From Candidatus Moraniibacteriota bacterium (GTDB lineage Bacteria > Patescibacteriota > Minisyncoccia > Moranbacterales > UBA1568), in the NCBI GenBank assembly GCA_008012175.1, contig SSEF01000030.1, positions 1-59,835 of the forward strand: 59,835 bases of DNA, read 5' to 3'. The notes under the pieces are model-generated. The model did no database searches and was not told the origin of the DNA. It worked only from the letters and a program-made list of their open reading frames with translations. The position numbers and the translations under genes were made by a program. This document shows, one piece after another, positions 6,378-32,075 of the stretch. Positions within the stretch are counted from its first letter, which is position 1. Each line of letters begins with the position of its first letter.

Positions 6378-7454
6378 CTATTTTTTCTTGATCGATCGGT
6401 TCGCTCCTTGCAGTGCGAGCCCGAGCGCGACAGCGAACGATGTCCCCATCCGATCGACAGCGCCTTCAAGTTCACGAGGATAATCGATCCTCTTCCATGG
6501 ATTGCCGACCGTCACCGGAAGATTGAAAAGTGTTGTGTAGTAGGCGGCAAGCCCGGTCAGCCCCGCTGTCCCACCAGAAAGAATTATACCATCAATCGGG
6601 CGATCCGGGTGTTTGGTCCGATGCATAGAAAGGATACGTTTGATTTCGGCACCGATCGCCTCAAGCGCCGGAAAGATGAGCTTCGCTCCCTGGGCATTCA
6701 GATAATCCTTGTCGCTCTTCTTGAGCGCCTCAGCCCGGTCTTCTGAGATATTCAAACCCTCTGTCAGCGTCCTCGTCACATCCCGCCCGCCAACATCGAG
6801 ATTGCGACTGACCTTGACGAGTCCGTTTTCTACGAGGACGAGATTCGTCGCACGCGCTCCAATATCCACCAAAAGAAACACTCCCTGGTCGCCATCAACA
6901 ACCGACCGAACGATCGAGAACGTCTCTAGTTCGAGGAGCTGCATATCATACTCGACTGACCGAATATAGCTCTCATAGCGCTCGACCTCCTTATTCAGGG
7001 CAGCTACCAGGAGCACTTCTACCCTGCTCCGACCAGAACTTCCAGCATCCGTGCTTGACACCGGCGTTTCGCCGACAATTTCCCAGGAAAGAGCCACTTC
7101 ATCCAGGGGCGAAGGAATGTACTTGTGTGCCTCAAACTGGATCGCCTCTTGCAATTCCTTCTCACTCATCTTGGGAAACTCGGCGAGCGCAACGAGGCCG
7201 ATGAACGCCGGCATCGCGACATAGACGCGCTTCGACTTTGGCTGCAGCCGATCGAGCAGTGCCCGGAGATGTGTCGTAATCCGCGCGTCATAGCTGCCCT
7301 GCGCATCATCCCCTCCCTTGTCGATCGCTGAAAGACTGATCTCGGCGTAATTGTTCAAAACGACCTTCCCCTCATCGACCCGAAGCTCTACCGCTTTGAT
7401 GGAGGAGGTACCGAAATCGATACCGAGAAATGTAGGCTTGTTGAATCCGAACAT
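6378..7454 (-). CDS. pilM: Type IV pilus assembly protein PilM (actin-like ATPase)
   Basis: FLGIDFGTSSIKAVEL phosphate-1 motif plus LLVDIGARATNL and ILSGGTAGL. I chose the internal ATG at 7454 (MFGFNKP...). The tracked ORF start at 7547 adds an implausible extension. Confidence 0.85.
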   Translation of the reverse strand: MFGFNKPTFLGIDFGTSSIKAVELRVDEGKVVLNNYAEISLSAIDKGGDDAQGSYDARITTHLRALLDRLQPKSKRVYVAMPAFIGLVALAEFPKMSEKELQEAIQFEAHKYIPSPLDEVALSWEIVGETPVSSTDAGSSGRSRVEVLLVAALNKEVERYESYIRSVEYDMQLLELETFSIVRSVVDGDQGVFLLVDIGARATNLVLVENGLVKVSRNLDVGGRDVTRTLTEGLNISEDRAEALKKSDKDYLNAQGAKLIFPALEAIGAEIKRILSMHRTKHPDRPIDGIILSGGTAGLTGLAAYYTTLFNLPVTVGNPWKRIDYPRELEGAVDRMGTSFAVALGLALQGANRSIKKK

Positions 7455-7592
7455 GTTTTTCTCTCTTTGTATTTCTGATGCCACTATACCATGGCAATCC
7501 GTTTTTCCGGAAGAATCCACTGCGATGCAGATGAAAAAATAACGCAAGATATTCCCATTCCCCCCTCCCCATGCTACACTAAGAAAAAAGTC

Positions 7593-8945
7593 ATGCCCGC
7601 GCTTCTTCTCCTCGCCCTCCTCTCAGCCAGCCTCCTCGCCCCTCTGCCGGCCGAAGCCGGCCTCATTCCCTGTGGGCTCACGGTAGACGATCCGGCCCTC
7701 GCCGGAGACCAGACAGTCCGCTGCACCCTCTGCCACCTCCTCGTCGGCATCCATCACATCGTTGTCTATCTCCGAAACATCATGGCCGCCGTGGCGATTG
7801 CCGCCATCGTGGCTATGGCTTTCGTCTACCTCACCTCGGGTGGGAATGAGAGTCAGATGACCTTTGCTAAAGGAGGTGTGATCGCGGCCTTGATTGGACT
7901 GTGCATCGTCCTCTTAGCCTGGGTCGTGGTCAACTTCATCTTGACCCTCCCGATCTTCAATACCAGCAACAATCTCATCCGGACCGGTTGGGATAGTGTC
8001 CAGTGTCAGACCAGTTCCCTCTCAGCTGGAGCAACCACACCCATGGCTACAGGGGGTGGAGGAGGGAGTGCTAGCGGTGGCGCTGGTGGGACGAGCGATG
8101 ACGTCGTGACGGTCCCACGTGGTGACACTGGGACTCCAGAAACATCTCTTCTCCCAGCTCCGACCGGTCTAGTTGCGAACGCACCTTCGACATCAACCGC
8201 CACCATATCTTGGACCCCCGCTGCGGGTAGTTCGTCTGGGACCGTCTATCATCTGGAACGTTGCACGGGGTTGACCTGTACCATCTTCACTCCGATCGCG
8301 ACTGTCACCGGGACGAGCTACACAAATACCGGACTCGCGGCTGGGACAGGCTATTCGTACCGGGTCCGGGCGGTCACTGCAAGCGGAGAGCTCTCCAATT
8401 GGTCAAACGTGACAAGAACGACGACGGTGGCTGATCCGATCAGTAATCCTGGGACGCCACCGGACAACCCGGGCACTCCCAGCACTCCTGGGACGCCACC
8501 GGACAACCCGGGCACTCCCAGCACTCCTGGGACACCGCCAAACGGCACCTGTGTCGGCCCCGGCACTCCCCAGTATCTCTTGGGGAAGTCTTGGGTGAGC
8601 AATCGCATCAATCCGGATGGTACGCCGATTCGCACCGAGGTGAGCTTCGTCGTCAGCGCGGCCAATAACAATCTCAGTATGAACCTGACTATCATCTGTC
8701 AGATGAGTGCTCTCGGCCATGGCAATGACCTCTCACCGGGCGTGACGGCTCTCATCCAGAATGCCACGGCCTCAACCTTTGATATCGTCCCCAACTATGA
8801 ACAGACTCTGACCAATAATCGCGGGTATACCTGCACGGTACGAACGGTCACGGAAACCGCCACCTACACACCCCTGTCTGACACCACGATGCGACTGTTC
8901 GGCCTGGATTTCACCGGGACATGCATGGGGAGCAGTGCCCCGTAA
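7593..8945 (+). CDS. Secreted/membrane protein: T4SS-pilin-like N-terminal module + FN3 domain + Pro-rich repeat + C-terminal domain
   Basis: Start chosen at ATG 7593 (MPALLLLALLSASLLAPLPAEA signal peptide). GLIPCG...CTLCHL followed by two TM helices resembles the CPR T4SS_pilin/TrbC-like family as I recall it. APTGLVA...ISWTPAAG...YSYRVRAV is FN3-like. PGTPPDNPGTPST occurs twice. Confidence 0.7.
   Translation: MPALLLLALLSASLLAPLPAEAGLIPCGLTVDDPALAGDQTVRCTLCHLLVGIHHIVVYLRNIMAAVAIAAIVAMAFVYLTSGGNESQMTFAKGGVIAALIGLCIVLLAWVVVNFILTLPIFNTSNNLIRTGWDSVQCQTSSLSAGATTPMATGGGGGSASGGAGGTSDDVVTVPRGDTGTPETSLLPAPTGLVANAPSTSTATISWTPAAGSSSGTVYHLERCTGLTCTIFTPIATVTGTSYTNTGLAAGTGYSYRVRAVTASGELSNWSNVTRTTTVADPISNPGTPPDNPGTPSTPGTPPDNPGTPSTPGTPPNGTCVGPGTPQYLLGKSWVSNRINPDGTPIRTEVSFVVSAANNNLSMNLTIICQMSALGHGNDLSPGVTALIQNATASTFDIVPNYEQTLTNNRGYTCTVRTVTETATYTPLSDTTMRLFGLDFTGTCMGSSAP
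8448..8539 (+). repeat. Perfect 2 x 39-nt in-frame tandem repeat plus a degenerate partial third unit
   Basis: cctgggacgccaccggacaacccgggcactcccagcact at 8448-8486 and 8487-8525, with a partial copy from 8526. Encodes the PGTPPDNPGTPST linker. Confidence 0.95.
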
Positions 8946-17927: not shown

Positions 17928-18175
17928 AAATTATGGTCTTAAGAATTACAGCTAGCTGAAATTGACTCGTGACAAAGTTTTAAAAAGTATCTATACTTAT
18001 TCTACAAGCACTTTGCTAATTCCAGCAGTTACTTTTGAAACGTTGCTTACAGCAACTCTTTATTTCTGTAAGAACGCCGCTCAACCGAAAGAAGAGTTCA
18101 TATTCTTGAATATGCGAATGGTCGAGTATCAAAAATATTACCCTTAGGGTGTGTTTTTGGACTCGGTCGATAACC

Positions 18176-18210
18176 AACACCACCTCATTGGGGTGGTGTT
18201 TGTGTTTATT
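18176..18210 (+). terminator. Terminator-like hairpin in the leader upstream of the ParB-methylase gene
   Basis: aacaccacc (18176-18184) pairs perfectly with ggtggtgtt (18192-18200) across a 7-nt loop. Followed by tgtgtttatt. Confidence 0.5.
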
Positions 18211-18229
18211 CGTCACTTATTCAAAAACT

Positions 18230-19561
18230 ATGAACAAGCAAAATCTTACAATCGTCGAAGTTCCGATTCGTGAACTTCGGGCCTCAGAATATAACCCGAG
18301 GAAACATTCAGCGGAGCAAAGCGATCAACTCAAGGAATCCATCAAACGGTTCGGCATGGTTGATCCAGTGATCTGTAACGGTGCTCCGGAACGGAAAAAT
18401 ATCATCATCGGAGGTCACTTCAGAACTGAGATAGCCAAAGAGATGGGCCTGACGACAGTTCCTGTAGTCTATGTCCACATCACCGACCTTGCCAAAGAAA
18501 AAGAACTCAATCTTCGCCTTAATAAGAACACGGGAGAATTCGATCTCGACCTCTTGGCCAAATTCGATGAAGCCTTCCTCTCTGATATTGGCTTCGACAG
18601 TGAGGACTTGGATGATATTTTTCCGACCGAGGAAAATGTGGAGCAGTTCGATCTCAAGAAAGAGCTCGAAAAGTTAGATATAGCCGAAGTGAGCGTAGCG
18701 AAAGGTGATATCTACGACTTAGACGGGTCTCGTCTCATGTGCGGTGATTCCACCGTTGCATCCGAGGTCTTACAACTCATGGATGGAGAGAAGGCTGACA
18801 TGTGCCTCACTGACCCACCGTATATCCTCGATTACCTCAAAGGGAAAACGAAGCAGAAGGCAGACGATGTCACCACGGGTTTCGGTGCCAAGAAAAATAG
18901 GCGCTATCTGGAGACCGATGTCTTGCCGGACAACTTCACCGAACTCTGGATGGGCAATATCAGCAAAGTAGCCGATGAAAACTTCGCGATCCTCGTCTAT
19001 GAGAACTGGAAGAACATCCGAACGATTTGGAACGAGATGGAGAAGTGCTGGAAAGTGAAGAACATGATCGTTTGGCATCTCCCGAACCGAGTACAGGGAT
19101 TTTCCGCCAAGTACAAGTTCTTCAACAAGCACGACATCGCCATGGTGGGATCGAGCAAATCATTTGAACTCCAAAACGAGGATGAGGGAGATCTGTTGGA
19201 GAACGAATACGAAACCGCTCTCTATGCCATCAGCGGGAAACCGCACTGGGAATCCTATGAGAAAGGAAAGAAGATCTGCCCGACCGACTTCATCGAGCAT
19301 GTCGCGGCCGATGAGAAGTCTTCCGGACAGGGAGTCATCTTCGGTACCAAGCCCATAGAGATCCTCATTCCCTACATCAAAGTCCTGACCCAACGGAACG
19401 ATCTCATTGTTGAGCCGTTTGGTGGGAGTGGTTCAACCTTGATAGCGGCGACCAAGATGAACCGTCGTTGCTATCTCATGGAGAAGGTACCGGCCTATGC
19501 CGAAATCATTCTCAAGCGGTGGGAAAAAGAGACAGGCAAGAAACGGAAGAAAGTAAAGTAG
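18230..19561 (+). CDS. ParB-like nuclease domain fused to an N4/N6 DNA methyltransferase
   Basis: Start chosen at ATG 18230 (MNKQNL...). ParB-N motifs (YNPRKHS, GGHFRTEIAKEMG). Methylase motif IV DPPY (CLTDPPYILDY) and motif I EPFGGSGSTLIAA. Confidence 0.85.
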   Translation: MNKQNLTIVEVPIRELRASEYNPRKHSAEQSDQLKESIKRFGMVDPVICNGAPERKNIIIGGHFRTEIAKEMGLTTVPVVYVHITDLAKEKELNLRLNKNTGEFDLDLLAKFDEAFLSDIGFDSEDLDDIFPTEENVEQFDLKKELEKLDIAEVSVAKGDIYDLDGSRLMCGDSTVASEVLQLMDGEKADMCLTDPPYILDYLKGKTKQKADDVTTGFGAKKNRRYLETDVLPDNFTELWMGNISKVADENFAILVYENWKNIRTIWNEMEKCWKVKNMIVWHLPNRVQGFSAKYKFFNKHDIAMVGSSKSFELQNEDEGDLLENEYETALYAISGKPHWESYEKGKKICPTDFIEHVAADEKSSGQGVIFGTKPIEILIPYIKVLTQRNDLIVEPFGGSGSTLIAATKMNRRCYLMEKVPAYAEIILKRWEKETGKKRKKVK

Positions 19562-19562
19562 T

Positions 19563-20030
19563 ATGATCGACGACAAGACCAAGCAGAAACTGCTCAAGGA
19601 GCTCGAAAAAACGGGTAATATCTATTTGGCTTGTCTCAAGGTGGGCATTGATCGGTCTACCCATTACCGATGGCTTGACTCGGACAAGACGTTCAAGAAA
19701 CAAGCGGGTCAGGCCATTCGGCGGGGTAAAGAGAATAGCTGTGACATAGCGAAGCACGCGCTTATGCTCAAAGTGAAGGATAAGGACATGCGGGCGATAG
19801 AATACTTACTCAGCCACAATGATCCGGCGTACAAACGGAAGCAAACGAGTAATGTAGTGATTGTTCACAAGAAAGTAAATCCTTTACCTTTTCCGGTACG
19901 GAAAACACTGGAGGAAGAGTTTGATGAGTACGAGTTTGTGGATGACTGCAATGATTATAGTCTTGATGGAAAGAGGCTATCACAAGGCTCAGTTACACCA
20001 AAGGACAAGGAAAAACCTGATAACAGCTAA
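19563..20030 (+). CDS. HTH protein resembling a phage terminase small subunit / transcriptional regulator
   Basis: 155 aa. GNIYLACLKVGIDRSTHYRWLDSDKTFKK is the HTH pattern common in small terminase-like proteins. Starts 2 nt after the methylase stop. Confidence 0.45.
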   Translation: MIDDKTKQKLLKELEKTGNIYLACLKVGIDRSTHYRWLDSDKTFKKQAGQAIRRGKENSCDIAKHALMLKVKDKDMRAIEYLLSHNDPAYKRKQTSNVVIVHKKVNPLPFPVRKTLEEEFDEYEFVDDCNDYSLDGKRLSQGSVTPKDKEKPDNS

Positions 20031-20039
20031 GAGTACTTC

Positions 20040-20606
20040 TCAGCGTAGATTTAGAGAATGTTTTCGTAGCGCCTCTTTTATTTCCTGATGACGAGGAAAA
20101 GTTATTGCGACGAGATTCCAAAACTTCCTCGAATGATTAAATTCCTTGAGATGGCAAAGTTCATGGACCACAATGTAGTCCTGCACTTTCTCCGGGAGAA
20201 AGAGGAGTTTGTAATTGAAGTTAAGATTCCCTTTCCTTGAGCAGCTCCCCCAGCGAGTCTTCTGGTTCTTTATGTTTATTTTGTTGTAGCGGAAGTTATA
20301 GAACTCACTGAAGTACTTAACCTTTTGTTCTACAACTCGAAACGCGTCCTCCTTGTACTTCAAGTAATCATCGTGACTGTACCTGGATACCAAGCGGCCC
20401 TGAAATTGCTTAAAGAAACTGATTTTTGAGAGAAGCCAATCCGATTTCTCTTTTATGAACTTTTCTATCATCGTTTCCCGAAGATCATGGGGCATTGTCA
20501 CCACAATGGTCCCGTCACAGTAGACGGCCAATCGAAGCCTCCGTGCCCGTCGACTTTTTCGGAGGGTGTAGGATATCGTTTTGTTTTTGAGTTTTATTTT
20601 CTGCAT
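20040..20606 (-). CDS. DUF45/YgjP-like (M48 family) zinc metallopeptidase
   Basis: 188 aa. WGSC...HELCHLKEFNHSRKFW (HExxH). This family is commonly encoded next to hsdR. Last gene of the hsd operon. Confidence 0.8.
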   Translation of the reverse strand: MQKIKLKNKTISYTLRKSRRARRLRLAVYCDGTIVVTMPHDLRETMIEKFIKEKSDWLLSKISFFKQFQGRLVSRYSHDDYLKYKEDAFRVVEQKVKYFSEFYNFRYNKINIKNQKTRWGSCSRKGNLNFNYKLLFLPEKVQDYIVVHELCHLKEFNHSRKFWNLVAITFPRHQEIKEALRKHSLNLR

Positions 20607-20609
20607 AAA

Positions 20610-23516
20610 CTAGAACTTCTTGACCACGATGTCGACCAAACGATTGAGGTATTTGTGAAAATCATCTACCGTCACTCGCCCACGGTATTCTTTCAGTACA
20701 AGTTCCTGAATGATCCGTTTCGTTTCTTTGAGAAACTCTTCTCGTTTTGAAGATTCCTGCCAACCTCCGTCCAATATGTCTTCAAGTCTCTTGGTCATGT
20801 CTTGAATAAACTCTCGAAGAGCATTTGCATCACCTTTGAGGAATTCTTCAGAGGCTACAAAAAGCCCGTACTCCTTGAGGGAGAAGCCGAGCTCCTTCGC
20901 TTCGTCAGCCTTTTTCTTGATATCGGTCAGAAGCTCTTGGTAACGTTTGATACGCTCAGCGAGGTCAATCTGGTGTTGTTCAAATTCCTTGCGAATAGCC
21001 GCCAGTCGCTCACTGAATTTCTTGTATGCCGGGTTGGTATCGACATTGATTGAGATCTCTTGTTTGAGCATCTTTTCCAAATTGAGCGCCTTTTCCTCAT
21101 CATCCATCTTGTTCAGGCGTTCCATAGTGTAGAGATCGTTGATATTGAGTTCGCGGAAGTTCTTGGTAATACCCTCATAGTCAACCTGGTCTTGAATGAG
21201 TCGTTTTACCTTTTCCCCGTATTCAGCCAGAAGCTCGGCATCAGACGATTTCGTTCCATACTCCTTATCAAACGCAAGGTACACCGAAGTCAGCCATTCA
21301 AATCGACGCACGTACTCTTTGAGAAAAGGATCCGGCGAAAGCACTTCGAAGAGGAGTTTAAGGCGGGCATATTTCTCACGGAAGTATTTCTGCTTTTCGA
21401 AATTCTCAGCAAAAATCTTCAGCACCCGTCGCAGATTATCAATGGAGGGATCCTCGATATTGATACCCACGAAAAGACCCATAATATCTTCGAGCACGGC
21501 AGTAAATTCTTCCTTGAGCTTATCGATATTGATCATGGCTGAATCAACTACGCTCTCATCAAAATCAAGCGCTTTATACAGACTCCGGGTGATACCGTAG
21601 TAATCAATAACCTTGCCAGCGCCTTTGTTTGGATAGACTCGGTTGGTACGCGCGATGGCTTGGAGCAAGTTATGATCCCAGAGCGGCTTATCGAGATACA
21701 TTACTTGTTCCACCGGAGCATCAAAACCCGTAAGGAGCATATCGCAGACCAAGAGAAACCGGAGAGGATTTTCGGGATCTTTGAACTCAGCGATTATCTT
21801 CTCGCGTTTCGCCTTTGTTGTGTTGTATTTTCTTAGATCCTCTATGTCGGTATTGGGATCTCCTGGGGAATAGACCACTTCGGACCAGTCCTTGGGGATG
21901 AGCTGATCCAGTAGTTTCTTGTACTTGGCCGTGGCTTCGCGGTCATAACAGACAATCTGCGCCTTGAAACCGGATGGCTCGACGTAGAGACGATAGTGCT
22001 CCACGATATCGCGGGCGACGGCCTCCATTCGCCGGTCCAGCTTCACGATCGCTTCTTTTTTCCCGTACTTTTTGGCTATAGCATCCTTGTCCTTATCAGA
22101 AAGATCGGTGGTCATTGTCTCAAACTGCTCATCGAGCTTTTCTTCATCAATAAAGAACTTGGAGAGACGAGCCTCATAAGTAACTGGTAGTGTTGCTCCA
22201 TCATCGATTGCTTGTTGGATTGAATAATAATCAAGATAGCGTTCACCATCTTCGCCAAAGTTCCTGTGGGTATTCAAAGTCTTCCTGTCTATCGGCGTTC
22301 CGGTAAAACCAAAGAAGAACGCATTTTTCATGGCGCTTCGCAGGTTGATGGCTGAAACGCCTTCATTGTCACGGTGAGCCTCGTCAGAAAGCACGATGAC
22401 ATTTTCATCCAGATTTTGTATGGCATTTCCAAGTTCGGAAAACTTCTGGATAGTGGAGACAAATATTCCTCGTTCGGGCGATTGGATCTTTTTCTCCAGA
22501 TCAGTCCGGGATTCAACACGGATAACGTTCTTACCACCACAATTTACAAATGTTTCGTAGATCTGATCATCCAAATCGATACGGTCAACCAACACAAACA
22601 CCTTCGGATTTTTAAGTGTCTTGTTATAGCGTAGTTTCCAGGCCGTAAAGAACATGGTGAGCGACTTACCAGAACCTTGGGTGTGCCAGATGAGTCCTCG
22701 CTTTTTCTTACCGTCGAGTACTCGCTCCACAATCTTATTCGTCGCTCGGAGTTGCTGGTATCGGGCAATTTTTTTCACTTTCTGCTCCTTTTCTTTTTCA
22801 AAGATGATGAAGTTCTGAATGATGTCCAGAAGCTTCTCCTTCGAAAGTAAGGCTGTCAGTGTTCGCTCGAGTTCCTCATCAGTATCCTTTTCTTTTCCTT
22901 CGTCTTTCCATTGCAGAAAGTACTGTGCCGGAGCATAGGTGGCCCCATAGACGGTTTTGAGTCCGTCAGTGGCGATGTTGAAGCAATTTGGCCAGAATAA
23001 CTTGAAAGCGTTGCGCTCATAGCGTTTCAATTGACCGACTGCATTGGCATAGCTCACATTGGTAGCAGCAGTTGGGCTTTTTGCCTCGATATCAACGATC
23101 GGCAACCCGTTCAAAAACACCATAATATCGGGGCGGATATTCTCGGTGTTCCCTTCGAAATAGAATTGGTTGGTAACGATAAATTGATTGTTTGCGACAT
23201 CTTCAAAATCAACCAGTTTGTAGTCTCGCATTTTCTGAGTTTCTTGATCCTTGATGTTGATCCCATTTTTCAGCACATTCAAGAAATCCTCATTGCTATC
23301 ATGCTTCTTTACTTCACGGACAACAGAAAGTGCCTCATCGTCATCAATCTTGTTCACTCGTTTGACTGCCTCCAACAAAAGAGAGGTGATGAGATATTCA
23401 TTTTCGAATTCACGAAGCTTGCTGAACTCTTGTGGAGAGACATATTCAAAACCAAGCGTCTCTTTCAGAAACTTGATGATGTAGTTTTCTACAGTGTGTT
23501 GTTCGTTGAATTTCAT
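20610..23516 (-). CDS. hsdR: Type I restriction endonuclease subunit R
   Basis: 968 aa. N-terminal nuclease region, helicase motif I HTQGSGKSLTM, DEAH box (VLSDEAHR), and the LLVCDMLLTGFDAP and QAIARTNR motifs. Confidence 0.93.
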   Translation of the reverse strand: MKFNEQHTVENYIIKFLKETLGFEYVSPQEFSKLREFENEYLITSLLLEAVKRVNKIDDDEALSVVREVKKHDSNEDFLNVLKNGINIKDQETQKMRDYKLVDFEDVANNQFIVTNQFYFEGNTENIRPDIMVFLNGLPIVDIEAKSPTAATNVSYANAVGQLKRYERNAFKLFWPNCFNIATDGLKTVYGATYAPAQYFLQWKDEGKEKDTDEELERTLTALLSKEKLLDIIQNFIIFEKEKEQKVKKIARYQQLRATNKIVERVLDGKKKRGLIWHTQGSGKSLTMFFTAWKLRYNKTLKNPKVFVLVDRIDLDDQIYETFVNCGGKNVIRVESRTDLEKKIQSPERGIFVSTIQKFSELGNAIQNLDENVIVLSDEAHRDNEGVSAINLRSAMKNAFFFGFTGTPIDRKTLNTHRNFGEDGERYLDYYSIQQAIDDGATLPVTYEARLSKFFIDEEKLDEQFETMTTDLSDKDKDAIAKKYGKKEAIVKLDRRMEAVARDIVEHYRLYVEPSGFKAQIVCYDREATAKYKKLLDQLIPKDWSEVVYSPGDPNTDIEDLRKYNTTKAKREKIIAEFKDPENPLRFLLVCDMLLTGFDAPVEQVMYLDKPLWDHNLLQAIARTNRVYPNKGAGKVIDYYGITRSLYKALDFDESVVDSAMINIDKLKEEFTAVLEDIMGLFVGINIEDPSIDNLRRVLKIFAENFEKQKYFREKYARLKLLFEVLSPDPFLKEYVRRFEWLTSVYLAFDKEYGTKSSDAELLAEYGEKVKRLIQDQVDYEGITKNFRELNINDLYTMERLNKMDDEEKALNLEKMLKQEISINVDTNPAYKKFSERLAAIRKEFEQHQIDLAERIKRYQELLTDIKKKADEAKELGFSLKEYGLFVASEEFLKGDANALREFIQDMTKRLEDILDGGWQESSKREEFLKETKRIIQELVLKEYRGRVTVDDFHKYLNRLVDIVVKKF

Positions 23517-24514
23517 ACCTTAAACTTATCTTTTAGAAATTGATAGGCAGCATCTGAATACTTTTGGACATAGTGTTGTCGACTCACCTGGACAGCCTGG
23601 TGATATTTGTCGTTACCCTTCATGTTCAGTTCCGTTATCTTATTTAGGACCACATGTCTACCTATACCTAACTTTTCAGCAAGCGTAGTAAGTATGTATG
23701 GATAGTCCTTGTTGATATCGGTTTTTTTAACAAAAACTGGAAGTGCTTCACGTTGAGTTGATCCTCCTTTTGCGATGTCAACATTAATTGTGTGGTTCTT
23801 TGGCGCTTGCACGAACACTACTTTTAATAACTCGGCTCTTGAGAGAAAAGATCCCAAAGCACCACGATTAATGAGTCGGCGGTTGCTGGATTGTTTAAAT
23901 TGTTTTTCAAAATCATCCTGTGCAATATATTGAGTACCTGAATATGCAACACCACGCTCTAACAGATATAGAAGCCTCCTTTGTTTTTCTGACTTTTTCC
24001 CTACCTTTAACAATCCTTCAATGCTGTCTGCATATGTTAGATTACTATCCGTTGAAATTGATAAAAGGCTAGCTTTGAATAAGTCATCATGCCCTCGAAA
24101 CTGTGTAATGAATAGTTTTTTATAAGTTTGATAAGAAGAAAACATGAGATAGTGAAGCACATCTGTATGAATTTCAGGTAATACATCGTGCGAGGCCTCG
24201 TTACGAAGAGATATGAGTTGCTGTATTGCCTGTTGTTCGATATCACCTATTTTTTTGTGATCATTGTAGATCTTCCAAACAGACTGTTCAGCACTAATAG
24301 TTTTACTCCGATCTCTAGGATCAGTGACACTACTACCTAGTTTCAAGAGCACTGCTTTGCTGAGTAGCTCAATCGCATTACTCATCAAAATCAAAGCTGA
24401 TTCACTGCGATATGAGTTACTGATATTGTTAAAATTATTTATAGCATCAATGAAAGCTCGTTTAGAGCTATTCACAAGTAGTGTTCTTTTGTAAATACCT
24501 CGAGCCATAATCAA
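23513..24514 (-). CDS. HEPN-like (RNxxxH motif) protein with a possible C-terminal HTH, embedded between hsdS and hsdR
   Basis: 333 aa. LILMSNAIELLSKAVLLKLG helix followed by SLRNEASHD (Rx4H). C-terminal ILTTLAEKLGIGRHVVLNKITEL is HTH-like. No P-loop. 4-nt overlaps with both hsdS and hsdR. Confidence 0.5.
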   Translation of the reverse strand: MIMARGIYKRTLLVNSSKRAFIDAINNFNNISNSYRSESALILMSNAIELLSKAVLLKLGSSVTDPRDRSKTISAEQSVWKIYNDHKKIGDIEQQAIQQLISLRNEASHDVLPEIHTDVLHYLMFSSYQTYKKLFITQFRGHDDLFKASLLSISTDSNLTYADSIEGLLKVGKKSEKQRRLLYLLERGVAYSGTQYIAQDDFEKQFKQSSNRRLINRGALGSFLSRAELLKVVFVQAPKNHTINVDIAKGGSTQREALPVFVKKTDINKDYPYILTTLAEKLGIGRHVVLNKITELNMKGNDKYHQAVQVSRQHYVQKYSDAAYQFLKDKFKV

Positions 24515-25569
24515 ATCGTTCTTACTTTCCCACTCAACAAATCTTTCATCAAACCTTTTTTAAGAAAATCCAGTTTCACTTTCAACTTTTTATTAACTAA
24601 GATTTTTTCGTCAACTGACTGAAGTATGCTCGCGATTTTCCGTTGGCTACTCTTGTCACTTGGAAAGGCTACTATCTTACTGTGAACATCATTTCTATTG
24701 AGAGTTGGTACTCCAGTGCCAGAATAAAAACGCTCGAGCTTAAAGTTCTGAAGGAAGTAGTAAACAAACATTGGATCATTATTGTAGAATTCTTTCACAT
24801 ACAACGTTGTATTTAGAGGCCAGAAATCTCGTTCAACATAAAATACCTTTCCAATTGTACCGCTCCTTCCAGTTATAACACCTGGACCTTTTACCTTAGC
24901 TTCCTTGTGGGTATCGGTAATGCCATTAGAACTAACAAGTGGGAATACGCCCCGTTCTCGTTTATGTGTTGGTAGGTCAAAACCTCTCTGTAAAACCATG
25001 AGGTTATCAAATCGACCGATATGCCACCCCTTCTTTTTCTTAAAAAACTTTTGTAATAATCCTCTTTTGAGCTTTTCGGTGGTAGCAATAATCTCATCAG
25101 TTTTCTGAATCTCTTCATCTACTGACCCTAAAATCTCAGCGACCTTCTCTTGTTCAGGAAGTGGCGGGATTTCAATCTGAAGCCTGTAGACTTCTTCCCG
25201 ATTTAGTCCAGGTGTGCCCGAGGCGGTATTCATCTTGTCGAGAGCGAGAGTCTGAAGTTTGTAAAACAGCCAGCGAAGATCTAGGGATGGATCACTTTCA
25301 ACATAGTATGTTGTATCTATTGGCCAGAAGTCTTCATCCGACCAGGTTATAGCACCTATCGTTCCTTTACGCCCAACAATGATTCCGGGACCTTTCACTA
25401 GGGATTCAGTATGTAGACCAACACGGCCATTTGAGCCAAAAACAGGAACATGCCCAGAAACTCTTTTTGATTCGGGTAAACTTGCGCCATATTGTAACTG
25501 TATACGGGAGTCAAACCGTCCGCTTTGCCACCCGTTTACAGTCCTATTGTTAGCAGCTTTTTTCTTCAT
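24511..25569 (-). CDS. hsdS: Type I R-M specificity subunit S
   Basis: 352 aa. Two target-recognition regions separated by conserved helices (LPEQEKVAEILGSVDEEIQ...LKRGLLQKFF and QRKIASILQSVDEKI...LKKGLMKDLLSGKV). Confidence 0.88.
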   Translation of the reverse strand: MKKKAANNRTVNGWQSGRFDSRIQLQYGASLPESKRVSGHVPVFGSNGRVGLHTESLVKGPGIIVGRKGTIGAITWSDEDFWPIDTTYYVESDPSLDLRWLFYKLQTLALDKMNTASGTPGLNREEVYRLQIEIPPLPEQEKVAEILGSVDEEIQKTDEIIATTEKLKRGLLQKFFKKKKGWHIGRFDNLMVLQRGFDLPTHKRERGVFPLVSSNGITDTHKEAKVKGPGVITGRSGTIGKVFYVERDFWPLNTTLYVKEFYNNDPMFVYYFLQNFKLERFYSGTGVPTLNRNDVHSKIVAFPSDKSSQRKIASILQSVDEKILVNKKLKVKLDFLKKGLMKDLLSGKVRTI

Positions 25570-26155
25570 ATTGAATCAAATACTTCTCCACAACCTGCTT
25601 ATTAAAAGCACAGAGTAACATCCGCAGTTTTGCCAATACTTCGAAAAACTTCATTCGCGCTAACGGTTCTATGATCGGACTCATTTTGATAACAGACATA
25701 CCTTTCTGGTCTATTTCCTGATGGAAGTGCTCCTCATTGAGGATAGTATTAAAAACCATTCTCACAGACAGGTTTTTTTGACCAACTTCGATACAAATCG
25801 GATCTTGATCAAGAATCTTTTGGTATGCTTCCAGCCATTCGGATACCCTCTGTGAATCAAAATTCTTTTCGATAAAAAACTGACAGATGTTTTCGAAGTT
25901 AAACTTATTCTTATCTTTCAGGATAAACATCCGCACATCCATCAAAAATGATTTTACCAAATCTTCGTTCGGAAACTCAGACGTGACTTTACCCGAAGCG
26001 CCAGCCTTCACTGAAATAGTAACTTTCTGATGATTTAATGCTGAGTACTTATCGGCACAAAGCACATGTGCTTTTTCCTTAAAGCGCCCAATATCTCGAA
26101 TGTTTATTTGGCCGGCGATCAATTTAGTCATGCGTTTTAGTGAGATCAAATTCAT
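25550..26155 (-). CDS. Hypothetical protein, third gene of the cassette embedded in the hsd operon
   Basis: 201-aa ORF (alternative ATG at 26131). Overlaps the upstream TIR-like gene and the hsdS start. No recognisable motif and no TM helix. Confidence 0.55.
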   Translation of the reverse strand: MNLISLKRMTKLIAGQINIRDIGRFKEKAHVLCADKYSALNHQKVTISVKAGASGKVTSEFPNEDLVKSFLMDVRMFILKDKNKFNFENICQFFIEKNFDSQRVSEWLEAYQKILDQDPICIEVGQKNLSVRMVFNTILNEEHFHQEIDQKGMSVIKMSPIIEPLARMKFFEVLAKLRMLLCAFNKQVVEKYLIQYEEKSC

Positions 26156-26813
26156 CGAGTCTGTCTTTAAGACCTAAGACATGATCAATATAGAAGTTAT
26201 GATTGCCGATAAAATCATCCCACTTTACGGGGTATATGTACGAATGATCACTTCCGTAGTGATGGTAGTTTCCACACGTAGCACAAAGATTACGCTTGTG
26301 CTCATTCCGATTGAACATGTTGGACGAAATTATATTAAAGAAGTTTTGTGTTTGAACTTCAGTCATGCAACTATAGTTTTTTATTCCGTGATCATAACTA
26401 CTAGTCTCGTCTGGCAGAATGATCGCCAAAACCCCATTTGTATAACTGGTACGATCGTCTCTTGTTTTTTCCCTTAGGGAGTATGCTACTTCTCTGGGAA
26501 TCCATTGGAGCTTTTCGAACCCTGCGCCCTTCATATTCTTGGAAATGAGAACGATCGTAACTGTGCTGTCGTATATCCTGTCGTATAGTTTTTGTTGGAT
26601 TACTTCCTCAGTGAGATGACTGAGATCTTCATCATCCTTCTCTGCTTTGTTGGTGTGATCAGTCAAAACTCTCTGCATCAAATGATCCACATAATCACGC
26701 GCAGTTAAATAATTCCCATTCTCGATACCAGATGCCCAGTGACTCCAATCACAATTTGTATTTTGCCTTACGGTCTTGTCACCATACTTGTAGCTGATGA
26801 ATACCTTTGCCAT
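26124..26813 (-). CDS. TIR-like domain protein (MTH538/DUF1863 type, ThsB-like)
   Basis: 229 aa. KVFISYKYGD at the N-terminus, STVTIVLISKNM, WIPREVAYSL (candidate catalytic Glu), GVLAIILPD. This pattern matches my recollection of the DUF1863 TIR-like family. Confidence 0.6.
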   Translation of the reverse strand: MAKVFISYKYGDKTVRQNTNCDWSHWASGIENGNYLTARDYVDHLMQRVLTDHTNKAEKDDEDLSHLTEEVIQQKLYDRIYDSTVTIVLISKNMKGAGFEKLQWIPREVAYSLREKTRDDRTSYTNGVLAIILPDETSSYDHGIKNYSCMTEVQTQNFFNIISSNMFNRNEHKRNLCATCGNYHHYGSDHSYIYPVKWDDFIGNHNFYIDHVLGLKDRLDEFDLTKTHD

Positions 26814-26816
26814 AGA

Positions 26817-27224
26817 CTATTTCATGTAAAATATCACGTACATGGCAGCAGTCAGGAGTAGTCCGTAAAAATACCGTAGCGTTGGTGAAAACATACAAAA
26901 AATAACTGTATTCTGCGCCTTTCCTTGAAACTCTTTCACATCCATAGAGAAGTCTATCTCTTCCTCACATTGTTTCCGTACCTTGTTGTACAGATCCCGA
27001 AACATCTTTTCTTGAGAAAGAAAGTACCCATCGTAGCACCAAAAAAGAACGGTGAGAATTGCAAGAAAAACAATTGGCAACTTTCCACCATCAACTTGCG
27101 TTAGTAGCACTAGAACACCAGCGATAAGAGTTACAATCCATCCACGAAGATAGAACAAGTTTCCAGCCATTCTTGAGATGACGCCCTGTATAAGTTCAAG
27201 GTGTTTCAGCTTCTTGTCTTCCAT
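26817..27224 (-). CDS. Small membrane protein with 3 TM helices (candidate effector)
   Basis: 135 aa. N-terminal amphipathic LELIQGVISRMAGNLFYLRGW, then hydrophobic helices WIVTLIAGVLVLLTQV, LPIVFLAILTVLFWCY and FYGLLLTAAMYVIFYM. Lies 6 nt after the hsdM stop and 3 nt before the TIR-like start. Confidence 0.6.
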   Translation of the reverse strand: MEDKKLKHLELIQGVISRMAGNLFYLRGWIVTLIAGVLVLLTQVDGGKLPIVFLAILTVLFWCYDGYFLSQEKMFRDLYNKVRKQCEEEIDFSMDVKEFQGKAQNTVIFCMFSPTLRYFYGLLLTAAMYVIFYMK

Positions 27225-27230
27225 AGGTCT

Positions 27231-28928
27231 TTAATACTTCAGCTCATTCAAATAGTTAGTAACCTTCTTATCAACCTCCACGCGTTCCTTCTCAAGATTC
27301 ATCAATTCCTTGCGCACTGCTGAGACATCAATCTTTTCCTCTTTCTCACCATTCTCTACATATCGTCGGACATTGAGGTTATATTCATTTTCTTCAATTT
27401 CCTTAAGATCAATCACTCGGGCGTAGCCATCGACATCCTTGAAGTTGTCGTACGTCTTCACGATTTTCTGGATATCCTGATACCGGAGTGAGTTCTGATT
27501 CTTCCCTTCGGAGAAGTCCTTTTCTGCATCGATAATCAAAACCTTCCCTTGTCGTTCTTTTGGTTTATTCCTATTGAAAATAATGATAGCTACGGGAATA
27601 CCCACCCCATAAAACAACTTGGCGGGCATGGCGATAACAGCTTCAATAAGATCATTTTTTAGCAACTGTTCCCGAATACGGCCAGGCGTATCTCCCTTGA
27701 ACAAAACTCCATGGGGGCAAACAACGCCTGCACGACCATTTGAATTCATGGACTTGATAATATGCAGGATAAACGCGAAGTCCGCATTCTTCTGTGGAGG
27801 CATGTCATACCCGTCGAGACGACCAAAACGGTCAGACTTAAACAGTTCCCATTCCCATTCTTTGATCGAGTATGGAAAGTTGGCCACGCAAATATCGAAG
27901 GTCTTGAGTGAGCCGTTTGGATTGAGAAACTGTGGATTGGCAAGCGTGTCACCACGCTGAATATCCGCGCTGTCGAGGCCGTGCAAGAACATATTGATCT
28001 TGGCGATAGCGAAAGTCCCGATATTAATCTCCTGACCATAGAGATACAGCGTCCGGGCTACTGCTTCACCTTCCTTTTCCTTGAGATTATGAAAAGCCTC
28101 AAGGAGAAATCCTCCTGAACCCACGGTTGGGTCGTATATATGATCCTTCTTGTGGGGCTTGAGAATTTGAATGATGACCCGCTCAACTTCACGGGGAGTG
28201 TAGAATTCACCACCTTTTTTCCCGGCATCCGCAGCGAACTGCTTGATGAGGTACTCGTACGCGTCTCCCAAAACATCAGAGTTGATATAGGTGTCGCCGA
28301 AGTTGTACTGGGAAAAGTGATTGATGAGTCGCTGGAGTGTTTCGTTCGGAAACTTGTCCTTATTGGCGAAGTCGAGATCATCGAATATTTTGTCGAGCTT
28401 CGGACTGTTCGCATTGGTCAGCTTGTCGAAAACCTCGTTTAATTTCTGACCGATATTTTCCGAGCGTTCTTCAACTACTGACCAGCGGCACTCTTTCGGA
28501 ACCTGGAAACGGTGATTGTAATCTGCACGGGCAAGAGTTTCATCTTTGAAATCTCCCATAAGCTTTTGATACTCCTCGTCCCATACATCACTGATACGCT
28601 TGTAAAACAGGAGGCCAAAAATGTATTTCTTGTAATCAGAGCTATCAATTTTTCCTCGAAGAATATCAGCGCTCTTCCAAAGAAATTGCTCGAGCTGTGG
28701 AAGCGTGAGCTTGCTACCCATTTTATCAACGATTGCTTGGATATCTTGGGGACGATATTTACGGTCGCCACGCTTGCCAACCCGTAGAGGCACAAGGATT
28801 CCTTCTTTCTCCCAGTTCCGCAGGGTGTCCTGATGGATACTGAATATCTCCGCTACCTGCCCAATTGAGAGTAGCTCGGGCATCCCTTTGAGTTTTTGTT
28901 GGATATCTTTACGCATAATGTGAGTCAT
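27231..28928 (-). CDS. hsdM: Type I R-M methyltransferase subunit M with an N-terminal MerR/excisionase-type HTH extension
   Basis: 565 aa. LSIGQVAEIFSIHQDTLRNWEKEGILVP (HTH). HsdM_N region (LWKSADILRGKIDSSDYKKYIFGLLFYKRISD). Motif I DPTVGSGGFLLEA. Motif IV VANFPYS. Confidence 0.9.
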   Translation of the reverse strand: MTHIMRKDIQQKLKGMPELLSIGQVAEIFSIHQDTLRNWEKEGILVPLRVGKRGDRKYRPQDIQAIVDKMGSKLTLPQLEQFLWKSADILRGKIDSSDYKKYIFGLLFYKRISDVWDEEYQKLMGDFKDETLARADYNHRFQVPKECRWSVVEERSENIGQKLNEVFDKLTNANSPKLDKIFDDLDFANKDKFPNETLQRLINHFSQYNFGDTYINSDVLGDAYEYLIKQFAADAGKKGGEFYTPREVERVIIQILKPHKKDHIYDPTVGSGGFLLEAFHNLKEKEGEAVARTLYLYGQEINIGTFAIAKINMFLHGLDSADIQRGDTLANPQFLNPNGSLKTFDICVANFPYSIKEWEWELFKSDRFGRLDGYDMPPQKNADFAFILHIIKSMNSNGRAGVVCPHGVLFKGDTPGRIREQLLKNDLIEAVIAMPAKLFYGVGIPVAIIIFNRNKPKERQGKVLIIDAEKDFSEGKNQNSLRYQDIQKIVKTYDNFKDVDGYARVIDLKEIEENEYNLNVRRYVENGEKEEKIDVSAVRKELMNLEKERVEVDKKVTNYLNELKY

Positions 28929-29092: not shown

Positions 29093-30463
29093 ATGAGTAA
29101 CCACCTAGATACCAGAAAAGTGGCTCTAGAGAGCCAAATAGATCCATCAACCACTACTAAAGTGAGGTATTGCCTTTATGCCCGAAAGAGCACCGAATCC
29201 GAGGAGCGACAGGTACTTTCCATCGATTCCCAAGTAAAGGAGATGCTTCAGATCGCTGACCGGGATGGGTTGGAAATTGTCGAAATCCGAAGAGAGAGTC
29301 ACTCTGCCAAGTCATCAGGTGGCCGACCTGTTTACAACGAGCTTATTGAGGACATCCGTAAGGGTCGCTTCAACGGGATCCTCACCTGGGCACCCGATCG
29401 ACTCAGCCGAAACGCTGGTGATTTGGGATCGCTTGTCGACCTCATGGATCAGAAACTTCTCCTTGAGATTCGTACGTATGGGCAATGCTTTACCAATTCA
29501 CCGAATGAGAAGTTTCTTCTCATGATCCTCGGCTCACAGGCAAAGCTCGAAAACGACAATCGAGGCGTGAATGTGAAGCGAGGACTCAGAATGCGCTGCG
29601 AGATGGGTATGTGGCCGACCTGTGCCCCAACCGGATATCTCAACGTCATGTCGCCCGATCGGAAAGGGCAGGTAATGATCGATCCGGAACGAGGTCCGAT
29701 TGTAAAGAAGATGTTCGAGAGGGTGGCTATGGAACGCTGGAGCGGACGGAAGCTTTACCACTGGCTCAAGTTTGACCTCAACTTCAAGTCCAAAGGCAAC
29801 AAAAATCTCTCGCTCAGTAATATTTACCGCATTCTCCAAACTTCTTTTTACTACGGCCCATTTGAGTATCCACGAGGAAGTGGCAAATGGTACGAAGGTA
29901 AGCATGAACCTCTCATTACTAAGGAGCTCTTCGATCTCACTCAGGAACAATTGAAACGAGACCGGATTACTCGAGATAACAAGGAGTTCGCCTTCACGAA
30001 ACTCATTACCTGTGGGCTCTGTGGATCGGGTATCACCGCCGATGAGAAGTACAAGAAACTGAAAAGCGGAGATACGGCAACGTACATCTACTATGGGTGC
30101 ACCCGATCACGAGATCTCTCCTGCAAGCTGGGATATCTCCGAGAAGAAGAGTTGATCGCTCAGATGGCGAAGATGATTGACGTGATTGATATCAACGAAA
30201 TCGGGCTGAAGCGTCAGTTCGAGGACGAAGTCGAACGCTACAACAAATTCCAGCATACCGTGCTCCGGATGCATGGTCAGGAAGCAGAGATTGAGAAGAA
30301 ACAAGAGTTCGATATCCGAACCTACGCCAAGTACATCCTGCGAGAAGGACGAATGATTGAGAAACGAGAGCTTTTGGCGAGTCTCAAAAGCCGATTGATC
30401 CTAGGAAAAGATAAGAAATTAACTCTCAGGAAGTATGAAACCACCATAAAACCTGAATGTTGA
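29093..30463 (+). CDS. Large serine recombinase (resolvase catalytic domain + recombinase domain + zinc ribbon)
   Basis: 456 aa. YARKSTESEERQVLSIDSQ (catalytic Ser region), APDRLSRN, CGLCGSGI...YYGC zinc ribbon, C-terminal coiled coil. Divergent from hsdM. Confidence 0.9.
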   Translation: MSNHLDTRKVALESQIDPSTTTKVRYCLYARKSTESEERQVLSIDSQVKEMLQIADRDGLEIVEIRRESHSAKSSGGRPVYNELIEDIRKGRFNGILTWAPDRLSRNAGDLGSLVDLMDQKLLLEIRTYGQCFTNSPNEKFLLMILGSQAKLENDNRGVNVKRGLRMRCEMGMWPTCAPTGYLNVMSPDRKGQVMIDPERGPIVKKMFERVAMERWSGRKLYHWLKFDLNFKSKGNKNLSLSNIYRILQTSFYYGPFEYPRGSGKWYEGKHEPLITKELFDLTQEQLKRDRITRDNKEFAFTKLITCGLCGSGITADEKYKKLKSGDTATYIYYGCTRSRDLSCKLGYLREEELIAQMAKMIDVIDINEIGLKRQFEDEVERYNKFQHTVLRMHGQEAEIEKKQEFDIRTYAKYILREGRMIEKRELLASLKSRLILGKDKKLTLRKYETTIKPEC

Positions 30464-31271: not shown

Positions 31272-31294
31272 AAAACCGCCAGTCAGGCGGTTTT
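31272..31294. terminator. Bidirectional rho-independent terminator between convergent genes
   Basis: aaaaccgcc / ggcggtttt perfect stem with a 5-nt loop and A/T runs on both sides. Overlaps the stop codon of the 31283-31891 gene. Confidence 0.75.
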
Positions 31295-31891
31295 AGTATT
31301 GTTGTTATCCCTTAACAGTAACTCAAACTTGTATGTGAACCAGTACTCAAAAACATTCTCTACCTTCAACATTATCTGATAAAGAACCAAAATATTAATA
31401 TGGGATTGATCTTGTAAATAAAGCTCTCGACCCTTTGATTCAGGAAAACGGAAAACTTCAGCAGATTCGTCTAAACGAGAAATATCTTGAAACACTTTTT
31501 CCAGGAAAGTGATAAGTTCCTTGTCTTCTTTCAATAAATCAATTTTCTTCACTAACTTTTTAGTCTCGTTCCATAATTTCAAAATATCATGTCCTGCTGC
31601 CCTGGCATCCTCATGATTGTAGTAATAGGAGAGAAAGTTAATCATACCCTTTAGAGCAAGCTCTACTGCGTGTCTATACAGATAAAAAATTGGATATATG
31701 GATATATCAATATTTCTCCTCCTTTGTAAAACATCTTCAGCTACAGTTCTTGCTGCAAAAAAGTATCCCCTAGAGTAGTCTGTGTATGTATATGGACCGC
31801 CATTTGTTCCAACACATGCATTAAAGTCTGAAATCTCACGATCCCATTTAAATAAATCCCCACTCTCATATCCCAGGTCCCAATTTTCCAT
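31283..31891 (-). CDS. Classical HEPN-like domain protein with a ~60-aa N-terminal extension (no MNT partner)
   Basis: 202 aa. YRHAVELALKG, GHDILKLW and VFRFPES mirror the QAxEKALKA / tHDL / RYP landmarks of classical HEPN domains as I recall them. Confidence 0.45.
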   Translation of the reverse strand: MENWDLGYESGDLFKWDREISDFNACVGTNGGPYTYTDYSRGYFFAARTVAEDVLQRRRNIDISIYPIFYLYRHAVELALKGMINFLSYYYNHEDARAAGHDILKLWNETKKLVKKIDLLKEDKELITFLEKVFQDISRLDESAEVFRFPESKGRELYLQDQSHINILVLYQIMLKVENVFEYWFTYKFELLLRDNNNTKTA

Positions 31892-31946: not shown

Positions 31947-31987
31947 TAAAGGGTGTTTAGGTCACCCTCGATACTATGAGCTTGATG

Positions 31988-32075
31988 CGGAGAGGGAGGG
32001 ATTCGAACCCTCGAGAGCGATTAAGCCCTGCCACGTTAGCAGTGTGGTGCCTTCAGCCAGCTCGGCCACCTCTCC
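31988..32075 (-). tRNA. tRNA-Ser (anticodon GCU), long variable arm, no encoded CCA
   Basis: Reverse complement reads GGAGAGG-TG-GCCGAGCTGGCTGAAGGC-...CTGCTAA...-long variable arm-GAGGGTTCGAATCCCTC-CCTCTCC-G. Acceptor and T arm pair perfectly. The anticodon loop CT-GCT-AA has one A-C mismatch closing the stem. Confidence 0.85.

Follow-up and report, generated by a model that had tools for sequence, protein, structure and literature searches.

What occupies the gap between hsdM and hsdS in a type I restriction-modification (R-M) operon of a Candidatus Moraniibacteriota bacterium, and is it one defence system or several? The window analyzed here, a stretch of 59,835 nucleotides (GenBank assembly GCA_008012175.1, contig SSEF01000030.1, positions 1 to 59,835), carries on its minus strand three open reading frames (ORFs) that fill this gap, encoding a transmembrane (TM) protein of 135 residues, a TIR-like protein of 229 residues and a protein of 201 residues, here called p201. 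A sequence-only reading of the window had taken the three for a new TIR-dependent module in which p201 would be a third, sensor or adaptor, component. Our analysis points to another answer, to which we assign a probability of about 0.78: the gap houses two independent guest modules, a type V Thoeris pair (26124-27224) and the p201 gene (25550-26155), probably expressed from the hsd operon, and not a single three-gene system. The pair is not new, given that its TM protein corresponds to the PADLOC family PDC-M50A and that TM/TIR pairs of this kind have been filed as type V Thoeris; nor does p201 look like its third component, being confined to one TM/TIR lineage and belonging to a wider family that lacks TIR or TM partners. 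Since each of the three has database relatives (7 for p201, more than 1200 for the TM protein and 786 for the TIR protein), all are genuine genes and not chance reading frames.

A ThsB-type TIR protein and its membrane partner

By sequence comparison, the 229-residue protein is a ThsB-type TIR protein with an intact catalytic Glu108. It scores 24.3 bits against the Pfam family ThsB_TIR (PF08937), above the gathering score of 21.2, matches the PADLOC ThsB model PDLC00428 from end to end (E = 7.8e-63), and over residues 8-226 aligns to chain A of PDB entry 9VYL (E = 3.1e-43), the WIPxE catalytic motif included; the name of that entry is “Putative cyclic ADP-D-ribose synthase TIR1”. Several of the 786 relatives are likewise named “TIR domain-containing protein” or “MTH538 TIR-like (DUF1863)”. 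The landmarks from which membership in the DUF1863/ThsB family had first been read (KVFISYKYGD, STVTIVLIS, WIPREVAYSL and GVLAIILPD) are all present, and the family placement holds. Two residues of the WIPxE motif, W104 and E108, show no variation across 27 aligned TIR homologs with identities down to 29%. A C-terminal extension (residues ~149-192) contains C149, C177 (followed by xxC), an HH pair and D189-H190, all nearly invariant, and the pattern of C149, C177 and D189-H190 suggests a metal-binding or sensor subdomain that has no counterpart in the shorter TIR proteins found beside related TM genes (see below).

The 135-residue protein matches no Pfam family at all, and its residues 1-132 match the PADLOC model PDC-M50A (PDLC04686) over positions 1-130 of 134 (E = 4.6e-43). 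An AlphaFold2 (AF2) model built from 22 sequences (predicted local distance difference test, pLDDT, 84.9) and the hydropathy profile bear out the earlier description of an amphipathic N-terminal helix with three hydrophobic helices. In the model, the amphipathic N-terminus runs into TM1 as one helix (residues 3-43), the helix at 48-84 comprises TM2 plus a cytoplasmic extension, and a charged linker of ~40 residues with a short structured part leads to TM3 (114-133). The residues invariant in the family (R18, N22-W29 with the sequence NLFYLRGW, F61-L69 with the pattern FWxYDGYFL, E72, R76, R83 and D91-M94) gather at the membrane-cytoplasm interface. A Foldseek search of the model against the PDB returned generic helical hairpins only (E > 2). 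By hmmscan, an assignment to either SLATT or DUF2270 is unsupported.

Type V Thoeris, as described by Yirmiya et al. (bioRxiv 10.64898/2025.12.03.692087, December 2025), consists of ThsB and ThsF, the latter annotated “DUF2270”, with three membrane helices and an AlphaFold 3 (AF3) model of a homo-heptameric channel with basic pockets between protomers. The type V system of Bacillus thuringiensis DAR 81934 protects B. subtilis; its ThsB produces 3' cyclic ADP-ribose (3'cADPR) upon infection, this molecule poisons cells that harbour the system, and defence is weakened by the Tad1 sponge (Yirmiya et al., 2025). Two lines of evidence connect the window pair to this type. The first is the authors’ Table S1, in which entry 2711036658 (“DUF2270 - Type V”, TIR cluster 2742576382) is identical throughout to a 217-residue stretch within the 235-residue TIR protein of locus L012, whose operon partner (P0047) is 67% identical to the window’s TM protein. 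The window TIR itself is 49, 43 and 38% identical to three type V entries of cluster 2742576382, the highest value being that for entry 2711036658, and relatives of the short TIR are also filed as type V in the same table. The second comes from tblastn searches of plasmids, which recovered homologs of the validated B. thuringiensis ThsB (40-50% identity) and of the window’s TM protein (33-44% identity, E down to 1e-22); the two lie adjacent on plasmids of Priestia, Terribacillus and Klebsiella, where the TM proteins show 36-41% identity and score 100-126 bits against the window-family profile. Two further plasmid matches to this ThsB (H1 and H2, from B. cereus and Priestia) have neighbours of the type I/II Thoeris kind (SIR2, Macro) and lack a TM gene, and they were not used as evidence. 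Taken together, these links make a strong but indirect case that the 135-residue protein belongs to the ThsF family as Yirmiya et al. use the term, and the earlier view of the minimal TM protein as the effector is still the most likely one.

The TM protein has also been catalogued under a second name. Payne et al. (2024; 10.1101/2024.01.29.577857) described defence genes as systematically embedded in Hma, BREX, DISARM and type I R-M systems and used “guilt-by-embedding” to nominate candidates; their supplement lists a cassette FAM_00415>>FAM_00416 with the remark “Assign as candidate PDC-M50”, and a full-text literature search for “PDC-M50” returned zero hits, the term being met in this supplement only. 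Short TIR proteins of the window’s relatives (~162 residues) match PADLOC PDC-M50B (PDLC04688, ~1e-60), and PDC-M50 is therefore a TM protein with a short TIR. The cassettes that define this candidate were nested within BREX, DISARM and type I R-M systems, as the window pair is within the last of these. The window also agrees with the candidate in that its TM protein matches gene A over the full length; it differs in the partner, since gene B is a short TIR of ~162 residues and the window has a 229-residue ThsB that matches generic ThsB models only. Two of the three genes thus belong to an already named defence system, and p201 does not.

Comparison with the Thoeris types sharpens the assignment. 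With type V the window shares a two-gene operon of a ThsB-type TIR and an effector of ~135 residues with three membrane helices, and near relatives of both proteins were filed under that type by its authors; it differs in that its TIR belongs to cluster 2742576382 (the long form, extended by a C-terminal Cys/His region), to which the two validated systems do not belong, that its host is of the Candidate Phyla Radiation (CPR)/Patescibacteria type, that the module lies inside a type I R-M operon, and that PF10028 (DUF2270) is not recovered by hmmscan. Type I Thoeris (9VYL; ThsB of B. cereus MSX-D12) has a similar TIR, to judge from the full-length alignment to 9VYL and the matches to the PADLOC ThsB models, but a SIR2-SLOG ThsA effector where the window has a membrane protein, and no SIR2, SLOG or Macro ThsA was detected among the operon and island proteins scanned, as the sequence-only reading had also noted. 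Types II (Macro-TM ThsC) and VII (SLATT ThsH) likewise combine a TIR signal synthase with a membrane-disrupting effector; the 135-residue protein, however, has no space for a Macro domain, being all-helical with ~40 non-membrane residues and giving no match to Macro, and the suggested comparison with SLATT was negative (none at E <= 5 in Pfam for 22 family members, and none in NCBIfam).

Distributions of the TM/TIR pair and of p201

To place the pair, 27 species-representative genome loci were fetched with the TM alignment, together with loci from exact-protein look-ups, and their ORFs were classified by phmmer against the window proteins. In 26 of these 27 loci one or more TIR genes lie directly beside the TM gene; the exception is L033, with its nearest TIR-like ORF ~780 nt upstream. 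The partner is either a short ThsB_TIR protein of ~160 residues or the long form of ~230 residues, and the observed arrangements are shortTIR-TM, TM-longTIR, shortTIR-TM-longTIR, TM-longTIR-shortTIR and shortTIR-TM-shortTIR. As in the window, the TM gene and a long TIR alone form a common intact arrangement (L012-15, L019, L031, L032, L037, L038, L041). The nearest relatives of the window (L001, L004 and L007) read hsdM-shortTIR-TM-longTIR-p201-hsdS. Their additional short TIR, a ThsB_TIR protein of ~163 residues matching PDC-M50B, lies between hsdM and the TM gene (L001 6395-6883, L004 6013-6507, L007 5508-5999) and recurs at the same place in L010 (6511-6999). The window has no such gene, the space between hsdM and the TM gene being 6 nt and the 229-residue TIR not matching PDLC04688; it has either lost the short TIR or never had one.

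The third protein shows a quite different picture. A word-indexed search with p201 returned seven relatives only, all in one operon lineage with the gene order hsdM-shortTIR-TM-longTIR-p201-hsdS, and an exhaustive profile search extended the family to 127 cluster representatives of ~185-205 residues that align nearly from end to end. R75 and H145 are invariant in this family, and the motifs FP[DN]E..K[SA]FLMDxRxF, NFxxIC and LTxxxxxxxWLNxxxFH are characteristic. None of 51 sequences (p201 and 50 family members) matched Pfam or PADLOC; p201 has no match in NCBIfam or PHROGs, and its profile found nothing among PDB sequences. The AF2 model (pLDDT 75.7) is mostly helical with a small hairpin, and Foldseek gave no match (best E 0.8 in the PDB and 0.4 in BFVD). 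A HEPN-type RNase was considered and dropped, as 70 residues separate the conserved Arg from the His and an Rx4-6H motif is lacking.

The two distributions hardly overlap. Loci bearing all three genes are confined to one narrow operon lineage, in which HsdM is 72-79% identical, and the p201-family profile found no member outside this lineage in ~30 other TM/TIR loci. Conversely, a metagenome scan with a distant p201 subgroup yielded 80 loci (~70 of them distinct), in none of which a TM or TIR homolog was detected. In these distant loci hsdS is the commonest downstream neighbour (7 of 55) and hsdM the commonest upstream one (4 of 68), and the remaining neighbours are genes typical of defence islands (RhuM, Fic, Mrr_cat, AbiEii-like AAA_21, SduA_C, Abi_alpha, Hypoth_Ymh, DUF1016, N6_N4 methylase and Vsr genes); most p201-family loci have no hsd gene nearby. 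Where the gene does occur within an R-M operon, it is always the last before hsdS, with an overlap of 4-20 nt between its stop and the start of hsdS. Among the distant genes, those of L043 (138-722, followed by 700-2658) and L053 (6001-6555, followed by 6552-7640) overlap the start of the next gene, an hsdS or an N6_N4 methyltransferase gene, which hints at translational coupling of the family to DNA-modification genes in general. Because p201 and the TM/TIR pair are independently distributed, we regard p201 as an independent single-gene guest and not as a Thoeris component. The co-occurrence of the trio expected by the sequence-only reading is thus limited to a single operon lineage. As to what p201 does, our best guess is an independent defence function or an accessory role linked to the R-M system.

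Proposed mechanism and competing explanations

Extrapolating from Yirmiya et al. and the Thoeris literature, the window’s ThsB would sense phage infection and use NAD+ to make an isomer of cyclic ADP-ribose, most probably 3'cADPR. The isomer would bind positively charged pockets between ThsF protomers in a ring-like membrane oligomer, and signal-bound ThsF would open or disrupt the membrane, so that the infection is aborted. Among type V systems, this signal together with its toxicity through the effector has been demonstrated for that of B. thuringiensis DAR 81934 only; 3'cADPR is also the signal of Bacillus type I ThsBs. The TM/TIR module, p201 and a DUF3644/PDC-S19 gene further along the operon would all be expressed from the hsd operon, and one horizontally mobile locus would thereby give layered immunity, with restriction first and abortive infection as the backup. 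Functional cross-talk between the Thoeris module and the R-M enzyme is possible but unsupported.

Several points weigh against the reading of the gap as a type V Thoeris pair plus an unrelated guest, and it should be interpreted with these in mind. The ThsF assignment is indirect because hmmscan misses PF10028: one of 22 TM family members matched at E = 0.063, none reached the gathering score, and none of four plasmid TM homologs matched, so that the assignment derives from the authors’ table and from gene-neighbourhood transitivity and not from alignment to a validated effector. To our knowledge, there has been no experiment on any system from CPR bacteria. The cluster of long TIRs has a single tested representative (P. 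macerans, type IX), which gave no defence, and one validated type V system was unresponsive to 3'cADPR, leaving the identity of the signal uncertain (Yirmiya et al., 2025). Close relatives hold the additional short TIR that the window lacks, and a loss of function is therefore possible. Finally, p201 is translationally coupled within the cassette.

That defence cassettes are embedded in type I R-M operons has already been described (Payne et al., 2024), and the regularity of the insertion raises the question of whether the guests are wired to the enzyme. In such a scheme, modelled on PrrC, the Thoeris pair and/or p201 would be restrained by HsdMS(R) and released when a phage anti-restriction protein disables the complex. 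PrrC/EcoprrI, a precedent cited by Payne et al. (2024), is likewise a defence gene that lies among hsd genes and shares their transcript. The module occupies exactly the hsdM/hsdS junction in at least 15 of the 27 genome loci; these represent three divergent R-M lineages, and the histories of cassette and operon are mosaic: L020 has a long TIR 76% identical to the window’s but an HsdM of 38% and an HsdR of 27% identity, L021 and L026 combine an HsdM of 75% identity with TIRs of only 47-48%, and L037 and L041, representing a third R-M lineage, have an HsdM of 32-33% and a TIR of 66-67% identity. From these mosaic identities it follows that the module has passed between type I R-M lineages, at least three in number, and has entered the same hsdM/hsdS slot each time. 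The position of p201-family genes before hsdS in every R-M context would also fit a wired arrangement. On the other side, linked transfer alone can account for the embedding; the window proteins have no sequence kinship with PrrC, and coupling to the R-M enzyme is unsupported. TM/TIR modules are also found free-standing, with serine recombinases and a primase as neighbours (L012-15), following a methylase of the EcoRI type, and on plasmids; validated type V systems function as two-gene operons in B. subtilis, and most p201-family genes lie away from hsd genes altogether. Wiring of this kind is, on balance, quite unlikely. A related proposal concerns p201 itself, whose family could form a new class of R-M-coupled immune proteins that monitor or modulate the HsdS-containing complex, either as a PrrC-like guard or as a regulator of the specificity subunit, and in this lineage perhaps also link R-M status to the Thoeris module. 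Separately, type V Thoeris in CPR bacteria may use the hsdM/hsdS junction as a dedicated docking site that is prone to recombination. We consider this reading unlikely as well.

A second possibility is that the TIR protein is itself the effector, an NADase that depletes NAD+, and that the membrane protein acts as a sensor, anchor or regulator and not as a signal-activated pore. Many bacterial TIRs are NADase effectors, the catalytic Glu is intact here, and the 135-residue protein has no recognisable ligand-binding domain. Nevertheless, the nearest solved relative is named a cyclic ADP-ribose synthase, and in many loci one TM gene is paired with two different TIR genes, a pattern known from Thoeris, where several sensors serve a single effector. 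We hold this explanation to be very unlikely.

The idea from which this study started, a single novel three-component system with p201 as the dedicated sensor or adaptor of the TIR/TM pair, draws on the contiguity and translational coupling of the genes and on the fact that three relatives of distinct sequence (L001, L004 and L007) keep the trio, along with an additional short TIR. These relatives all belong to the one narrow operon lineage noted above, though, and outside it the ~30 other TM/TIR loci do without a p201-family gene and the ~70 distant p201 loci without a TM/TIR pair, their p201 genes being coupled to hsdS or methylase genes instead; the odds for this idea are slim. That the window module is a decayed remnant, non-functional after loss of the short TIR (PDC-M50B) that its closest relatives all carry, is hardly credible, as the TM gene with a long TIR alone is a common intact arrangement, none of the three ORFs is truncated or lacks an invariant residue, and the junction of hsdM with the TM gene is a clean 6-nt gap with no remnant.

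The resolution of an apparently new three-gene TIR system into a type V Thoeris pair, catalogued both as PDC-M50 and as Thoeris V, plus an unrelated guest gene is a useful negative. Little work has been done on the immune repertoires of CPR/Patescibacteria, which are tiny episymbionts, and the present assignment would extend type V Thoeris to a long-TIR variant in this group. The repeated insertion at hsdM/hsdS in three divergent R-M lineages offers a concrete case for studying defence genes nested in defence operons, and the p201 family, with its 127 cluster representatives and recurrent coupling to hsdS, is a reasonable candidate for experimental screening.

The host operon and the surrounding island

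The genes of the operon are listed in Table 1; Pfam and PADLOC matches to hsdM, hsdS and hsdR establish that the host of the module is a type I R-M operon.

Table 1. Genes of the R-M operon and its guests, by position in the window.
Feature	Position	Strand	Matches and remarks
YgjP-like metallopeptidase gene (188 aa), last of the operon	20040-20606	-	Pfam YgjP-like 8.7e-43
hsdR, type I restriction subunit	20610-23516	-	PADLOC REase_I 5.8e-138
DUF3644 / PADLOC PDC-S19 gene (333 aa), between hsdS and hsdR	23513-24514	-	Pfam DUF3644 2.9e-14; PDC-S19 6.9e-23
hsdS, type I specificity subunit, downstream flank of the insert	24511-25569	-	Pfam Methylase_S 8.6e-29 (two stretches); PADLOC Specificity_I 4.4e-99
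p201 gene, 201 aa (193 aa from Met9, start at 26131)	25550-26155	-	~190-aa family without named relatives
thsB, 229-aa TIR-like protein, long form with Cys/His-rich C-terminal extension	26124-26813	-	Pfam PF08937; PADLOC ThsB; PDB 9VYL
Putative thsF-like effector gene, 135 aa, three membrane helices	26817-27224	-	PADLOC PDC-M50A
hsdM, type I methyltransferase, upstream flank of the insert	27231-28928	-	Pfam N6_Mtase 3.5e-106, HsdM_N 2.1e-27, MerR_1 1.3e-10; PADLOC MTase_I

The coordinates and junctions of the three inserted ORFs are as the sequence-only reading had given them. hsdM and the TM gene are separated by 6 nt (TAA-AGACCT-ATG) and the TM and TIR genes by 3 nt (TAG-TCT-ATG); the TIR gene overlaps p201 by 32 nt if the first ATG is used, or by 8 nt from Met9 (ATGACTAA), and p201 overlaps hsdS by 20 nt. 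Met9 is the likelier start, as p201 homologs are 189-191 residues long; it was also chosen by the gene caller of the protein database (193 residues). The cassette is modestly more AT-rich than hsdM and hsdR (GC 0.37-0.41 vs. 0.42-0.48), as had been noticed from the sequence, and hsdS and the DUF3644 gene are likewise richer in AT than hsdM and hsdR. As for transcription, the minus strand has a single strong sigma-70-like site, at 28974-28946 immediately ahead of hsdM, and a motif scan found no credible minus-strand terminator between hsdM and hsdS. The counts of promoter and terminator motifs do not exceed those expected from shuffled sequence, and the operon structure is accordingly read from gene spacing alone. 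The claimed co-transcription of the cassette with the hsd genes is therefore consistent with the tight spacing and the lack of a credible terminator, falling short of proof.

The relatives carry different genes in the position of the window’s DUF3644/PDC-S19 gene between hsdS and hsdR, encoding 227 residues in L004, a 278-residue PDC-S32 protein in L007 and 256 residues in L010, from which it appears that the R-M operon has two variable insertion points. Residues 19-68 of HsdM form a MerR-type helix-turn-helix (HTH) fused N-terminally to the methyltransferase and kept in all close relatives, which could serve autoregulation of the operon. A YgjP-like gene follows hsdR in nearly every related locus whose contig reaches past hsdR, and was not detected in L035 and L037.

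The locus is probably part of a recombinase-borne island. A large serine recombinase gene (29093-30463, plus strand) lies divergent from hsdM, with copies 59-67% identical in the same position in L004, L016 and L024 and a match of 628 bits in L022. A tRNA-Ser(GCT) gene (31987-32075, minus strand) sits exactly at a jump in GC content from ~0.38 to ~0.54, and a search for direct repeats of the att type around the island gave short repeats at chance level only. Beside the tRNA gene, a 202-residue ORF (31283-31891, minus strand) has weak similarity to HEPN (E = 0.04) and to SLATT_4 (E = 0.0012, below the cut-off) and could be another defence-related gene at the island’s edge.

In seven of the related loci (L017, L018, L021, L022, L038, L039 and L041), a CPR-type operon was found in metagenome-assembled genomes labelled “uncultured Gammaproteobacteria” or “Pseudomonadales”, reflecting either mis-binning or horizontal transfer of the island beyond the Patescibacteria. 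At the other side of the operon, positions 18149-20030 (plus strand) encode a fusion of ParB_N with an N6_N4 DNA methyltransferase, followed by a small HTH protein, a pairing typical of phage or plasmid DNA which suggests that the left part of the island was derived from a mobile element.

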